Below, piece by piece: positions 14,934 through 37,861 of a stretch of 64,000 bases of DNA. The notes beneath the pieces are model-generated. The model ran no database searches. It saw nothing but the letters and a program-made list of their open reading frames with translations, and had not been told where the DNA came from. The stretch lies in sequence record NC_055781.1; one strand, written 5' to 3'. Each line of letters opens with the position of its first letter. Position 1 is the stretch's first letter. Made by a program: the position numbers and the translations under genes. Origin of the DNA: Escherichia phage p000v.

Positions 14934-14992
14934 TGTACAATCACCAAGGATGGTGATACTATAGACTTATCAACTACAGAGGAGTAAACAAA

Positions 14993-15157
14993 ATGACTAC
15001 TTTAATTATTTGGTTCGATGAAAATGAAGAAACATACTGTGTGAATATTGGTGAAAGCCCAATGCCTGAATTTGAATCCTCAGATAAAAACTCTGTTGTA
15101 TCTTGGGCTGAAGGTTATAAAGCAGCTAAAGGTGACGTTGAAATAATTTACATCTAA
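14993..15157 (+). CDS. small hypothetical protein (54 aa)
   Basis: Not in ORF track (<60 aa); GAGGAG SD 6 nt before ATG; preceded by promoter-like cassette. Confidence 0.45.
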   Translation: MTTLIIWFDENEETYCVNIGESPMPEFESSDKNSVVSWAEGYKAAKGDVEIIYI

Positions 15158-32790: not shown

Positions 32791-32828
32791 AGACCTATCG
32801 AAACGAAATGAGTAAATTGGAGAATAAA

Positions 32829-33809
32829 ATGTTCAACGTTCAAATCAAAAAAGGTATCTATCGTAATAACGAAATCTCTGGTTCTTATGTTGCCACAAAG
32901 ACCTGGTTCCCGGCAAAGCTTAATCCTGAATGTTCCCACTTAGGTGACGGTAAAATTTTCGTTATGATTGATGGTTCTGAACGTGGAGTATGGGTCTTCA
33001 AATCAGACATCGTAATGGAAGGAGTTGAGACATCACCAGTTGCAGTTGTTGAAAGCACTGAAGATATGAAAACTCGTATCAACAAACGCTTTAAAGTAAT
33101 GAACATGATGACGAATGGCATTATTGATGGCAAAATTCGTTCACTCATTATTTCAGGTGCAGCTGGTATTGGTAAGACGTATTCTCTGGATAAAGCACTT
33201 AATAATGCTAATGATAATGGTTTCATCAAATACAAAAGCATTAATGGTAAAATCTCCGGTATTGGCCTTTACGAACAACTTTGGCTCAACCGTGATGCAG
33301 ACAGCGTTCTCTTAATCGATGACGTTGACGTATTCTCAGATATGGACATCCTGAACCTTCTTAAAGCCGCATTAGATACCGGCGATAAACGCAAAGTTTG
33401 CTGGAGCACTGCATCATCTTATCTTGATGATAAGGGTATCGATAAAGAATTTGAGTTTGAAGGTACTATCGTTTTCATTACAAACGTTGATATTGATAAA
33501 GAGTTAGAACGCGGTTCGAAACTTGCTCCGCACCTTCAAGCTCTAGTATCTCGTTCAGTGTATCTCGACCTTGGAGTACACTCTAATGAAGAGATTATGG
33601 TTCGAGTTGAAGATGTAATATTATCTACTGACATGATGCAGAAACGTGGCTTGACTGATGCTGAAACGTACAAAGCATTGTCCTGGATGAAGGCTAACGT
33701 ATCTCGTCTTCGCAATGTATCATTACGTACGGCTCTTTATGTAGCAGATTTTATTTCAACTGATAAAGATGGTTGGGAAGAAATCTCGGAAGTTACTTTA
33801 CTGAAATAA
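32829..33809 (+). CDS. AAA+ ATPase (initiator/DnaC-IstB-like motif pattern)
   Basis: Walker A GAAGIGKT, Walker B VLLIDDVD, sensor-1-like IVFITN; start at second ATG with GGAGA SD. Confidence 0.65.
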   Translation: MFNVQIKKGIYRNNEISGSYVATKTWFPAKLNPECSHLGDGKIFVMIDGSERGVWVFKSDIVMEGVETSPVAVVESTEDMKTRINKRFKVMNMMTNGIIDGKIRSLIISGAAGIGKTYSLDKALNNANDNGFIKYKSINGKISGIGLYEQLWLNRDADSVLLIDDVDVFSDMDILNLLKAALDTGDKRKVCWSTASSYLDDKGIDKEFEFEGTIVFITNVDIDKELERGSKLAPHLQALVSRSVYLDLGVHSNEEIMVRVEDVILSTDMMQKRGLTDAETYKALSWMKANVSRLRNVSLRTALYVADFISTDKDGWEEISEVTLLK

Positions 33810-34293: not shown

Positions 34294-34821
34294 ATGAACG
34301 CTAAAGATATTTTCAACCTGGTAAATTATAACGACGGTAAATTTAAATCTGAAGCACAGAGCAAGTTCTTTAATGACGTTGCTTATGGTAACGAGATTAC
34401 CGTGGATGGAGGTCAGATTTTCAAATCTCGCTGGAATTGGATTGTTATCATCGATTCAGTTGGAATTGTGGAAGTCTACAAAAACACTAACAAAAAACGT
34501 ACATTATTCTGGTCTCGTGAAACTAACGAGCAGTACAAAAAGGATAAAGCATCTCGTTTATCCAAAGTAACCCAGGAAGATATCGAGTTCATTAAGAAAG
34601 ATATCGAGATGTATGAAAATTTAATCGCTGAAGACCAGGCAGTACTCGATAAGTTTGATGAAATTAAAGCTTCTCGTGAAATCCCTGACTTCATGAAAGA
34701 AACAGTAAACGAACGATACGCTCTCACTTCAGAACGTATTGCAAACTATACAAAACAGAAAGCAGAACGTATTAGTACTCTTCGGAAATTTGAAGAACGT
34801 TTAAAGACGGTTCACGCATAA
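34294..34821 (+). CDS. hypothetical protein
   Basis: 175-aa ORF with GGAGG SD. Confidence 0.6.
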   Translation: MNAKDIFNLVNYNDGKFKSEAQSKFFNDVAYGNEITVDGGQIFKSRWNWIVIIDSVGIVEVYKNTNKKRTLFWSRETNEQYKKDKASRLSKVTQEDIEFIKKDIEMYENLIAEDQAVLDKFDEIKASREIPDFMKETVNERYALTSERIANYTKQKAERISTLRKFEERLKTVHA

Positions 34822-34883
34822 ACGCTTTACCCAAGGACGGGTTATAATGGTTTTGAGTTCCAATTCAATCTGAGGAAATAGTT

Positions 34884-35879
34884 ATGAGCATTACATCTGA
34901 TGCGGTAAAACATGAAATTAACGGTTTATGTGCTTCACAGATTAAAGTGTGGTTTAAAGACCATAACGATCGCAGAGCACTTAATTATGAGCAAATTGCT
35001 ATCCAAGTTCATCAATTACTGACTAGTAAATTTGATTTTCATATGCCGTCTGAAATCTATACTAATCTGCCGCGAGCACTTATTAAAGCGTGTAAAGGTT
35101 ATGGAAAATCAATGGCTGACGGAATCTTCAGCGCGCTGAATAAACTTAACGTTCTGTCGATGATTAACTCTAACAATATCCTGCGTAATCTAGGACGTAC
35201 TGATTTGTTCGGTCGTGAACAGTGTAAAATGCCTTTGAAATGGATTGTTGCTCATCTTAACGAGAACCAAACACGTTTTATGGCCGTAACAGCACGTTTA
35301 CAAATGGGCCTAGATCGTCAGATGAACTTTAAAACTCATCCACGTTATTCAGGTTCAACAGACTTTTATAAATGTGAGCTTCAAAAGGTTGGTGGTAAAA
35401 CTGTCTTAGTAGTTCGTGTAACGTTTGAAGGACGACGTCAAGGATATTTTGACATAATCGGCTCTGGTCTTAAACATTGTGGATTTATCGACGAAGTTGA
35501 TATCAAGCGAGACGGCATTGGATACCGTATTGGGTATGTTTGTACTCTTAAAGAAGAGATTTCAGGACCAGCTCCAGGACTAAAAGACGTTAGATATAAA
35601 GACGAGCTCGTTGAAGAAATAAAAGAAGTTGAATATGATATCAACCAAGAAGATGCTCTTAAAGACCTTATTGATGAACTGAACCAAGATGTTATTCCTG
35701 TTCAGAAATTTGAATCAAAACATGCTGAGCAAATCAAATACTTTGAAGCTTTGATTAACGAACTTAATGTAACTATTCAACAGACTGACGATGAAATCTC
35801 ACGATTAGCAGGCTTAAACGGTAAAAATAAAACAGAACGAGCTAATCTTATTCAAGTAGTAAAACTTCTTAAGGAATGA
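34884..35879 (+). CDS. hypothetical protein with C-terminal coiled coil
   Basis: 331-aa ORF, GAGGA SD. Confidence 0.65.
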   Translation: MSITSDAVKHEINGLCASQIKVWFKDHNDRRALNYEQIAIQVHQLLTSKFDFHMPSEIYTNLPRALIKACKGYGKSMADGIFSALNKLNVLSMINSNNILRNLGRTDLFGREQCKMPLKWIVAHLNENQTRFMAVTARLQMGLDRQMNFKTHPRYSGSTDFYKCELQKVGGKTVLVVRVTFEGRRQGYFDIIGSGLKHCGFIDEVDIKRDGIGYRIGYVCTLKEEISGPAPGLKDVRYKDELVEEIKEVEYDINQEDALKDLIDELNQDVIPVQKFESKHAEQIKYFEALINELNVTIQQTDDEISRLAGLNGKNKTERANLIQVVKLLKE

Positions 35880-35908
35880 TGTACAACCAAGGATGGTTGG
35901 AGTATAAT
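35880..35908 (+). promoter_or_regulatory. promoter-like cassette (TGTACA / TATAAT) with CAACC-AAGGAT-GGTTG hairpin in spacer
   Basis: Related to cassette at 14934-14962 (TGATGTACAA...CCAAGGATGG). Confidence 0.45.
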
Positions 35909-35936
35909 GAATCTATCTTAACTAGAGGAAAATATT

Positions 35937-36887
35937 ATGACACGTTCACATTACATTGAATACTTTGCCGGTCTTATCGCTAACGTTCATGCTCAGCGCG
36001 CTTCTGGTGCACTAGGATTTGATGTTCCACACCGAGATGTAGTAAGTGGTATTCTTCGCGATTTTGGTACATACACAGGCCAAGAAAATCATATCTGTAA
36101 AGATACTCAGAATGCATATTCTCATTCATTAGGGACACTGCTTCAATGGTTCAAACGTTCTCGTTTATTATCTTCTACTGTAGCTCGCGATAACATTAAA
36201 AACTTTATGAAACCGAGCTTTATTAAATCTGTGACATCTAAAACCGATTTGGTTGAATTCACTATTGTTAATGATGTTAAAAAGACTCATTTAGCTGATT
36301 GGTTATCTACCATTCCTGAAACTAAATTTGCTGATAAATTTGCTTGTGAATTCAATAACCAAGTGAATATGCTTTTTAAACATTCTCGTAAATTATTCAC
36401 AGGCGGCGATGATCGTACAAATAAAGTTCATGTTAAAGATTGGGTTACTGCAGTATTCAAACCAACAGGTAATGGTAACGCATCATTGTCAATTGATATT
36501 CAGGTTCCTTATTACTACTCACGTAATCTCGGCACCATGAAAGCCGAAGAAATTAATAAGCGCAACAAAACCATTCGTTCGCTGTCTTATAAACTTCGCA
36601 TGATGTTAAGAATCATGGACGTGGTAGAAATGTATGATGAAACCGAAGATAATGGTTCAATGTTATACAGTTCTCGCATTCAAATTAAGTTGAAGAACCC
36701 TAACGAGTATAAGCCTAAGCCTATTAAAGAGCCTAAAGCAGAAAAAGTTGATAACTTAAGAGAAGAACGCGAATATCTCAAATCTCGTCTGAAAGAAGTC
36801 GAAGCCCAGATTAAAGAACAGACTAAATCGTTAAAAGCTCTGAATGCGAAAGCGGATGGTTTACGAAATGCCATTGAGGTGTTATAA
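35937..36887 (+). CDS. hypothetical protein with C-terminal coiled coil
   Basis: 316-aa ORF, GAGGA SD. Confidence 0.65.
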   Translation: MTRSHYIEYFAGLIANVHAQRASGALGFDVPHRDVVSGILRDFGTYTGQENHICKDTQNAYSHSLGTLLQWFKRSRLLSSTVARDNIKNFMKPSFIKSVTSKTDLVEFTIVNDVKKTHLADWLSTIPETKFADKFACEFNNQVNMLFKHSRKLFTGGDDRTNKVHVKDWVTAVFKPTGNGNASLSIDIQVPYYYSRNLGTMKAEEINKRNKTIRSLSYKLRMMLRIMDVVEMYDETEDNGSMLYSSRIQIKLKNPNEYKPKPIKEPKAEKVDNLREEREYLKSRLKEVEAQIKEQTKSLKALNAKADGLRNAIEVL

Positions 36888-37192
36888 TGAAACTACGTCT
36901 TTTAGAGGATATTGATATGAGCACTAATCATGGCTTGGTTAAGTTTATTGACGATAGTTCAAAGATTGAATTTGTTCAGCGAGATAAAATCCACGGTGAA
37001 GAAGAGTTCGTTCCTCCAGCATGGAACGAAATAATGAAAATGGTTGAACGACGTGAAAATGCCGCCAAATCGGCAGCAAAACATCCGTGTCCGGAATGTG
37101 GAACTATCCAAGTCCAACTGGTTAACTGGACCAGTGATAACTTGAAATTGAAATGCCGTAAATGCTTCCACAAATTTGAGAGAACATTATAA
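36887..37192 (+). CDS. zinc-ribbon protein
   Basis: CPEC...CRKC four-Cys motif; 101 aa. Confidence 0.6.
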   Translation: MKLRLLEDIDMSTNHGLVKFIDDSSKIEFVQRDKIHGEEEFVPPAWNEIMKMVERRENAAKSAAKHPCPECGTIQVQLVNWTSDNLKLKCRKCFHKFERTL

Positions 37193-37605
37193 TGAGATAT
37201 AGCCTTCGTTGTTTTATCGCAGCTTTAGTTTTTGCCATTATTCCATTCATTTGGAACAGCCAGAATACTTACATGGAAACTAAAGTAATTCCTGTGGAGG
37301 TAGTGGAATTAATCTCAGGCCAATCTACAGGAAAATATTCTAAATTAGAATTTATTGCAGTCTATAAAGATGAGCAAGGACGAGTTTTTGACAGGCGTGT
37401 ATCACCTTCGTTTTATACGCTTCTGAATAAAGGTGATACGATAGCTATAGAAATTCGTGAGATGGATATCAAACAAACTACTAAAGATAACTTGATTTGG
37501 TTCTTTGGTACAGTGTTGTTGGTTTCTATCTGTATCACAGGTTTTATTACATGTATTGTATTTGGCATTGCATATTTAATCGATGAAAGGAAAAATAATG
37601 TTTAA
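37192..37605 (+). CDS. membrane protein
   Basis: N- and C-terminal hydrophobic helices; 137 aa. Confidence 0.6.
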   Translation: MRYSLRCFIAALVFAIIPFIWNSQNTYMETKVIPVEVVELISGQSTGKYSKLEFIAVYKDEQGRVFDRRVSPSFYTLLNKGDTIAIEIREMDIKQTTKDNLIWFFGTVLLVSICITGFITCIVFGIAYLIDERKNNV

Positions 37606-37861
37606 AGTGTACGGGTATGACTCTACTATTCATAAATGCATTTATTGTGATAATGCGAAACGATTGCTGACTGTTAAGAAACAGCCGTTCGAATTCATTA
37701 ATGTTATGCCAGAAAAAGGTGTTTTTGATGATGAGAAAATTGCTGAGCTTCTGGTTAAGCTTGGACGTGAATCACAAGTCGGATTGACTATGCCTCAAGT
37801 GTTTGCTCCTGACGGAAGTCACATTGGTGGATTTGACCAACTACGAGAATATTTTAAATGA
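37598..37861 (+). CDS. nrdC: glutaredoxin NrdC
   Basis: MFKVYGYDSTIHKCIYCDNAKRLL...; colinear with T4 NrdC (87 aa). Confidence 0.93.
   Translation: MFKVYGYDSTIHKCIYCDNAKRLLTVKKQPFEFINVMPEKGVFDDEKIAELLVKLGRESQVGLTMPQVFAPDGSHIGGFDQLREYFK

Follow-up and report, generated by a model that had tools for sequence, protein, structure and literature searches.

We analyzed a 64,000-nucleotide (nt) stretch of Escherichia phage p000v (sequence record NC_055781.1; hereafter the window, one strand read 5' to 3') and focused on two neighboring open reading frames (ORFs) that encode proteins of 331 and 316 amino acids (aa). An earlier note, made from the letters alone, had described them as two unannotatable proteins of ~320 aa with coiled-coil C termini, each behind its own promoter-like cassette. 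Both ORFs are present at the positions given there; they lie on the plus strand, each with a GAGGA ribosome-binding site (Table 1). The window is AT-rich (~37% G+C) and transcribed almost entirely on this strand, and megablast identified the region as the nrdC-mobD region of a Mosigvirus (an RB69-like T-even phage), its sequence being 98% identical to that of many E. coli phages. As detailed below, the two proteins are Mosigvirus orthologs of T4 NrdC.6 and NrdC.3, and profile comparison places them as distant relatives of NrdC.5, a T4 protein with a reported counter-defence role.

Table 1. Features of the two genes and their surroundings. Positions are those of the window unless a comparison locus (L001 or L005) is named.
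Feature	Position	Strand	Description
NrdC.6 ortholog gene	34884-35879	+	331 aa; ORF list, similarity to T4 NrdC.6
Shine-Dalgarno, NrdC.6 ortholog	34872-34876		GAGGA, 7-8 nt 5' of ATG
NrdC.6 ortholog, residues 1-145	34884-35318	+	basic helical domain with conserved motif core inside
NrdC.6 ortholog, residues 146-225	35319-35558	+	variable alpha/beta subdomain
NrdC.6 ortholog, residues 226-277	35559-35714	+	linker: acidic, hypervariable, predicted disordered
NrdC.6 ortholog, residues 278-331	35715-35876	+	two-helix tail, conserved
NrdC.3 ortholog gene	35937-36887	+	316 aa; ORF list, similarity to T4 NrdC.3
Shine-Dalgarno, NrdC.3 ortholog	35925-35929		GAGGA, 7-8 nt 5' of ATG
NrdC.3 ortholog, residues 1-255		+	basic globular part; short linker next
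NrdC.3 ortholog, residues 275-316	36759-36884	+	single 41-residue heptad helix
Cassette of NrdC.6 ortholog	34823-34848	+	MotA-box-like CGCTTTA 34823-34829, 13-nt spacer, -10 TATAAT 34843-34848
Hairpin in NrdC.6-ortholog cassette	34829-34842	+	ACCC-AAGGAC-GGGT
Cassette of NrdC.3 ortholog	35880-35908	+	-35 TGTACA 35880-35885, 17-nt spacer, -10 TATAAT 35903-35908
Hairpin in NrdC.3-ortholog cassette	35884-35899	+	CAACC-AAGGAT-GGTTG
AAGGAY hairpins, window	14940-14957, 34829-34842, 35884-35899		
AAGGAY hairpins, L005	4034-4053, 6423-6436, 7480-7493		
Recombination joint	35880-35908; L001 5681-5735 and 6696-6757		
NrdC.8 ortholog	34294-34821	+	175 aa, directly upstream; 84% identical to Bas37_0203
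P-loop ATPase-like ORF	32808-33809	+	333 aa, 1 kb upstream; at T4 NrdC.10 position
NrdC.7 homolog	37192-37605	+	137-aa membrane protein, beside nrdC
nrdC	37583-37861		

Similarity Identifies Orthologs of T4 NrdC.6 and NrdC.3

The 331-aa protein aligned with T4 NrdC.6 over its full length at 34% identity and matched PHROG 2257 ("unknown function") across residues 1-331 (E = 1.6e-127). Its gene sits downstream of nrdC.8 in the nrdC-mobD region, a position that T4 NrdC.6 shares (in T4, after nrdC.7), and the T4 protein has the same motif core and the same tail, QI.YF...I.ELN..IQQ.DDEI.RL.GLN.K.K.ER..L....LLK. An alignment of the window protein with T4 and 33 relatives contained 39 invariant columns, the tail included, and the acidic linker is ~35 residues longer in the Mosigvirus protein than in T4. 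From end to end, the 316-aa protein and T4 NrdC.3 are 58% identical, and the former matched PHROG 1435 ("unknown function"; E = 9e-105). T4 NrdC.3 is likewise the final gene of its array and overlaps nrdC.2; in the window, the stop codon of the 316-aa ORF runs into the start of the nrdC.2 ortholog (36887). Both families are T-even throughout, with 108 clusters for NrdC.6 and 33 protein clusters in 652 phage records for NrdC.3. We conclude that similarity and gene order show the two proteins to be Mosigvirus orthologs of T4 NrdC.6 and NrdC.3.

Precomputed Pfam tags in a large protein database assign the two families to PF26899 (331-aa protein) and PF26897 (316-aa protein). "Unannotatable" was therefore too strong a word for proteins with clear T4 orthologs, PHROGs and Pfam tags, although neither has an assignable function. 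A Pfam copy that lacks these two entries, NCBIfam and PADLOC gave at most sub-threshold coiled-coil noise for both proteins, and profile searches of PDB sequences returned no relative (best E = 0.018). Neither protein matched a structural or replication family or fold in the family libraries and PDB profiles, nor did these searches detect a nucleic-acid-binding fold or family. The proteins are sizeable, as had been remarked, but they are not alone in their size, as a P-loop ATPase-like ORF of 333 aa lies 1 kb upstream.

Two features of public records touch these genes. First, the T4 reference annotation (NC_000866 52066-52893; L005 4493-5390) shortens NrdC.6 to 275 aa with an aberrant end, unlike the 331 aa of the Mosigvirus protein. 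Just 3' of this end, in "intergenic" DNA before nrdC.5, another frame encodes the conserved tail, ...SKAKSEREKLIKIVDLLKS*, and NrdC.6 is 296 aa in relatives and in the T4D annotation used by HIDEN-SEQ. The 275-aa version is likely a frameshift or a sequencing error. Second, many records (for example, MN850622 and OR352940) label all nrdC.x genes "thioredoxin", including the counterparts of both window genes. This product name is an error propagated from the gene name nrdC.x: nrdC itself encodes the only thioredoxin/glutaredoxin-like protein at the locus.

Both Proteins Combine a Basic Globular Part with a Conserved Helical Tail

We predicted both structures with AlphaFold. For the NrdC.6 ortholog, the mean predicted local distance difference test score (pLDDT) was 73, with a confident helical domain (residues 1-141); a small alpha/beta subdomain spans residues 160-222, residues 226-277 are disordered, and the C terminus holds two helices modelled as a hairpin. 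The first of these helices (281-307) has hydrophobic residues at 86% of its a/d heptad positions (p = 0.03 versus shuffles), and the second (313-331) gave no signal in the heptad test. The single tail helix of the NrdC.3 ortholog (275-316) reached 83% (p = 0.003 versus shuffles). The heptad pattern behind the coiled-coil C termini of the earlier note is thus seen in one helix of each protein; "coiled coil" is a reasonable but unproven label for both tails.

A search of the NrdC.6-ortholog model against the viral predicted-structure library BFVD with Foldseek recovered NrdC.6 orthologs. Further matches (E = 3e-7 to 1e-3, 12-16% identity) were uncharacterised full-length proteins of ~300-335 aa; these come from distant T4-like phages whose hosts are Enterobacter, Acinetobacter, Klebsiella, Yersinia and Serratia. 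One Aeromonas phage protein matched less well (E = 0.02). The model of the NrdC.3 ortholog is poor (pLDDT 55) because its family alignment is shallow, and its BFVD search therefore carries little weight. The secondary-structure elements run in the same order in both models, with this caveat for the second, and the two BFVD searches share only weak matches. Structure prediction and search, which the earlier note had suggested, gave predicted helical tails and no recognisable fold.

In both families, conservation is highest in a central motif core and the C-terminal tail (63-64% for NrdC.6 and 77-84% for NrdC.3) and lowest in the first helices, the alpha/beta subdomain and the linker, which is rich in indels. 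Conserved core motifs are SRLLS...L.NF and N..+LL..A+L..G.D+.M/I. The globular parts of both proteins are basic, with a net charge of +7 to +13 and an isoelectric point (pI) of 9.1-9.6 (9.6 for the N-domain of the NrdC.6 ortholog). The NrdC.3 ortholog has a pI of 9.5, and the NrdC.6 linker is acidic.

Bridge Sequences Link the Two Families to NrdC.5

To the two methods that compared them directly, the window proteins looked unrelated. BLASTP of the 331-aa against the 316-aa protein found no similarity, hhalign of the NrdC.6 against the NrdC.3 family profile was not significant (probability 3.5%), and T4 NrdC.5 has no direct pairwise similarity to either. Links appeared between broader profiles. 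T4 NrdC.4 is a clear homolog of NrdC.3 (hhalign probability 97.8%, E = 1e-12); Mosigviruses carry NrdC.3 only, T4 carries both, and Gapriver- and Dhakaviruses carry NrdC.4 only. Three NrdC.5 variants matched one another at 91-99%, and a combined NrdC.3+4 profile matched NrdC.5 (E = 1e-4; 4e-5 without the tails). The same combined profile matched NrdC.6 at 81.6% (E = 1e-5), a score driven by the tail.

We then searched 1.84 billion representatives exhaustively with HMMER, using the NrdC.6 profile as the query. This yielded only 15 matches, of which four are full-length but distant members encoded by uncultured T4-like phages. These bridge sequences matched the NrdC.6 profile (99.2%, E = 2e-19), the NrdC.5 group over the full length (97.9%, E = 5e-13) and NrdC.3+4 inside the globular region (92.1%, E = 6e-7), compared with E-values of 0.16-0.78 for reversed-sequence nulls. 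Profile comparison thus shows NrdC.3, NrdC.4, NrdC.5 and NrdC.6 to form one superfamily restricted to T4-like phages, at the level of a transitive link through the bridge sequences. On this basis, we take the window proteins to be distant paralogs, both of one another and of NrdC.5.

Gene order gives the same picture. Between nrdC.8 and nrdC.2 there are always two to four genes of ~300 aa (T4, Bas37, Gaprivervirus VR20 and Dhakavirus EcWhh-1), which share a layout, recurring motifs and a C-terminal helix, ...L..A..LLK. Copy number at the locus is two to four in Mosig-, Gapriver-, Dhaka- and Tequatroviruses and one in Kanagawavirus IME523. T4 NrdC.5 resembles the window proteins in locus, size and layout, and its C-terminal heptad helix ends in ...L..A...L; it is a non-essential early gene, placed like the window genes. 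Unlike T4, the window has no NrdC.5-type gene.

Related Hairpin-Bearing Cassettes Precede Each Gene

The promoter-like cassettes of the earlier note were borne out, and they proved to be related repeats with a common core, CCAAGGAYGG. This core occurs in three exact copies in the window; allowing one mismatch, there are nine matches versus 2.7 expected, and none of 100 shuffles reached nine. In each cassette, the core is predicted to fold, between the -35 and -10 elements, into a hairpin with a stem of 4-7 bp and an unvarying AAGGAY loop. The stems covary, with 100% of cells paired and three of four pairs changed on both sides, a test that is partly circular because the scan behind part of the set required complementarity.

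The two cassettes appear to differ in class. The one at 34823-34848 is MotA- or middle-promoter-like: a 13-nt spacing suits T4 middle promoters. The one at 35880-35908, TGTACA-N17-TATAAT, is sigma70- or T4-early-like, with 10 of 12 consensus matches, and it agrees with the consensus published for PeSL promoters of T4/PST-type phages, TTTACW-N17-TAYWAT (PMC4122927). The upstream cassette has Mot-box-type spacing instead. A generic promoter scan of the region found 23 sites versus 21.9 expected, no enrichment over shuffles; the evidence for the cassettes is therefore their repetition and their conservation in relatives, not the consensus match. Cassettes of this type lie 5' of nrdC.6, an NrdC.5-like gene and nrdC.3 in Mosigvirus, and 5' of nrdC.7 (-nrdC.6), nrdC.4 and nrdC.3 in T4. 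Within the T4 and Mosigvirus loci that we inspected, each AAGGAY hairpin stands before a member of the nrdC.3-.7 array. A third copy in the window (14940-14957) lies before a 54-aa ORF (14993-15157).

This arrangement recalls the PeSL/PmSL systems (Arbiol et al. 2010, PMC2839356; Comeau et al. 2014, PMC4122927), in which repeated promoter motifs also lie beside non-essential ORFs of hyperplastic regions. The PeSL stem-loop is terminator-like, whereas the hairpin here has 4-5 bp and lies inside the promoter spacer. We found no terminator-like site on the plus strand between 34000 and 37000, and a terminator scan was not enriched over shuffles.

The Junction between the Two Genes Varies among Close Relatives

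The two genes are not a fixed pair, contrary to how they were first presented. In ~135 of 154 Mosigvirus records, another gene of ~320 aa lies between nrdC.6 and nrdC.3, and in T4 there are two genes between them. The intervening gene of most Mosigviruses encodes an NrdC.5-like protein of 319 aa, occupies ~1 kb and has a near-identical cassette copy of 27-29 bp on either side. When we aligned the window junction with the two cassettes of mobillu, it followed the left copy up to a shared 27-bp core and the right copy beyond it. This gene-less junction is shared by 19 of the 154 records; the others break at window position ~35882.

In the PeSL systems, cassettes mark the end points of insertions and deletions, just as they do at the window junction, where a ~1-kb gene is present or absent. 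One report describes recombination between PeSL cassettes that gives insertions and deletions among close relatives (PMC2839356). As read from the joint, recombination of the PeSL type between two cassettes left the window phage without an NrdC.5-like gene, which it either lost or never acquired. Beside nrdC, the 137-aa membrane protein is a homolog of T4 NrdC.7 (41% identity) and stands in the place of T4 nrdC.1. We found no homolog of NrdC.1 (reported as anti-Septu) at this window locus. An NrdC.7 homolog in the nrdC.1 place is, by its position, a further sign of module shuffling.

Neighboring Genes Have Reported Counter-Defence Roles

According to published work, the nrdC-mobD locus is increasingly identified as a hyperplastic, anti-defence island. 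T4 nrdC.5 restores infection of a host that carries Dsr1, a SIR2 system (Srikant et al. 2022, PMC9391042), and within the superfamily anti-Dsr1 activity is known for T4 NrdC.5 only. T4 nrdC.1 counters Septu and bas37_0203 counters Druantia type III (bioRxiv 10.1101/2025.11.20.689424), and T6 gp49.2, just 3' of nrdC, inhibits OLD (PMC13096335). The passages found of the EVADES anti-defence compendium preprint do not mention NrdC.5. We suspected that bas37_0203 might correspond to one of the two window genes; it was rejected, as bas37_0203 (Bas37 = KarlGJung, MZ501089) is the NrdC.8 ortholog. The C-terminal half of the 175-aa NrdC.8 ortholog is charged and helical.

HIDEN-SEQ data bear on dispensability. 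TA sites were disrupted at 91 of 94 positions in T4 nrdC.3 and 79 of 82 in nrdC.6, and at 78 of 85 and 80 of 84 in the Bas37 orthologs 0198 and 0201; all four genes are non-essential on K-12. The same table lists bas37_0203 with a log2 fold change (log2FC) of -5.8 on host CFE303. For bas37_0205, at the position of the 333-aa ATPase-like ORF, the HIDEN-SEQ data give a log2FC of -1.64 on CFT073 (fold change only). The two window genes thus have orthologs that are dispensable on laboratory hosts, and they belong to a locus whose other members NrdC.8, NrdC.5, NrdC.1 and Gp49.2 have reported anti-defence roles.

Discussion

We propose that the two proteins are modular, oligomerising early/middle counter-defence proteins that inhibit host immune proteins, and we give this reading a probability of roughly 0.5. 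An inhibitor role is plausible because the proteins are paralogs of the counter-defence protein NrdC.5 and lie in an anti-defence island. In each copy, a promoter cassette of early or middle type that bears the hairpin is followed by a ribosome-binding site and an ORF, which makes the copy a self-contained module. Each protein comprises a basic N-terminal globular region with the motif core, a poorly conserved alpha/beta subdomain, a variable linker and a conserved amphipathic heptad helix; it would be made early in infection, be soluble and cytoplasmic, and oligomerise via its C-terminal tail. The globular part would bind and neutralise a host immune protein, with each paralog specialised for a different defence system, as experiment has shown for NrdC.5 and Dsr1 only. 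The repeated promoter cassettes serve as recombination handles through which the array gains or loses family members.

Several observations weigh against this proposal. First, HIDEN-SEQ competition assays did not find the Bas37 orthologs significantly depleted on the clinical hosts CFT073, CFE299 and CFE303: bas37 0201 had a log2FC of -0.73 (q = 0.81) on CFT073, and the values on CFE299 and CFE303 were ~0. The literature searched for nrdC.3 and nrdC.6 yielded no functional study and no experimental tie to any defence system. Second, homology to NrdC.5 is remote and transitive as judged from profiles, and with the tails removed the match between NrdC.6 and NrdC.3+4 was not significant (E = 0.05). 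Paralogs of an inhibitor also need not inhibit. Third, we infer oligomerisation via the tail from the heptad pattern alone, and the early or middle promoter activity of the cassettes is likewise read from their motifs. Finally, the basic charge of both proteins would fit nucleic-acid binding equally well.

That last point leads to the strongest alternative, that these are host-takeover or housekeeping-modulating accessory proteins with no tie to immunity, for example basic nucleic-acid binders that tune the DNA or RNA metabolism of host or phage in certain growth conditions. The charge of the globular parts, the lack of a conditional phenotype on the three clinical hosts and the dispensability of the genes on K-12 all agree with it. 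So does the clustering of invariant polar residues in the motif core common to the paralogs, which points to a shared biochemical function more than to target surfaces that diverge. The searches described above detected no nucleic-acid-binding fold or family, however; the array differs in copy number and content even within one phage species, as is typical of arms-race genes and not of metabolic modulators; and one paralog and several close neighbors have experimentally supported counter-defence roles. We consider a host-takeover function possible, though on the unlikely side.

A hetero-oligomer of the two proteins, joined via their C-terminal helices, is improbable. In its favor, no part of either protein is better conserved than its tail, and the two tails align weakly with each other. 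Every NrdC.6 member in the Tequatro-, Mosig-, Gapriver- and Dhakavirus genomes that we compared is also accompanied by an NrdC.3 or NrdC.4 member. In a distant T4-like phage, the products of two adjacent genes (UniProt E5EYP0 and E5EYP1) match the two models, respectively. Yet only one family member is present in Kanagawavirus, the genes are usually kept apart by one or two other paralogs, and each gene has a promoter of its own, apparently of different class.

T4 internal proteins are known anti-restriction factors, and the N terminus of NrdC.3, NrdC.4 and NrdC.5, M(K)TRxxYIxxF (window 35937-35980; L005), bears a loose likeness to the T4 capsid-targeting sequence MKTYQEFIAE, but virion-packaged internal proteins, or structural or replication components, are very improbable given the absence of this motif from NrdC.6, cassettes of early or middle rather than late type, non-essential orthologs and no match to a structural or replication family or fold. 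The earlier note had named identification as known structural or replication proteins as what would refute its description; the searches above gave no such match.

Returning to the counter-defence proposal, a wider form of it would make the entire superfamily dedicated immune inhibitors, each paralog disabling a different bacterial defence system. A fast-evolving specificity subdomain would be mounted on a conserved core and an oligomerising tail, and T-even phages would swap whole inhibitors in and out via the cassettes. We offer this extension as speculative and rather doubtful. If it were true, the locus would be a cassette array of counter-defence genes, and the window proteins would hit systems for which a phage antagonist is not yet known.

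The genes themselves are ordinary, long-catalogued hypothetical ORFs of T-even phages; what is new here is their family relationship and their anti-defence context. Function is a matter of inference at this stage, and the finding generates hypotheses rather than surprises. T-even phages are central to phage biology and therapy, and their nrdC-mobD region increasingly looks like a reservoir of counter-defence genes. A superfamily with a Dsr1-defeating member makes two anonymous ORFs concrete candidates for defence-panel screening. Recombination between cassettes offers a simple sequence-level account of why family content differs among close phages, and this variation may contribute to differences in host range.

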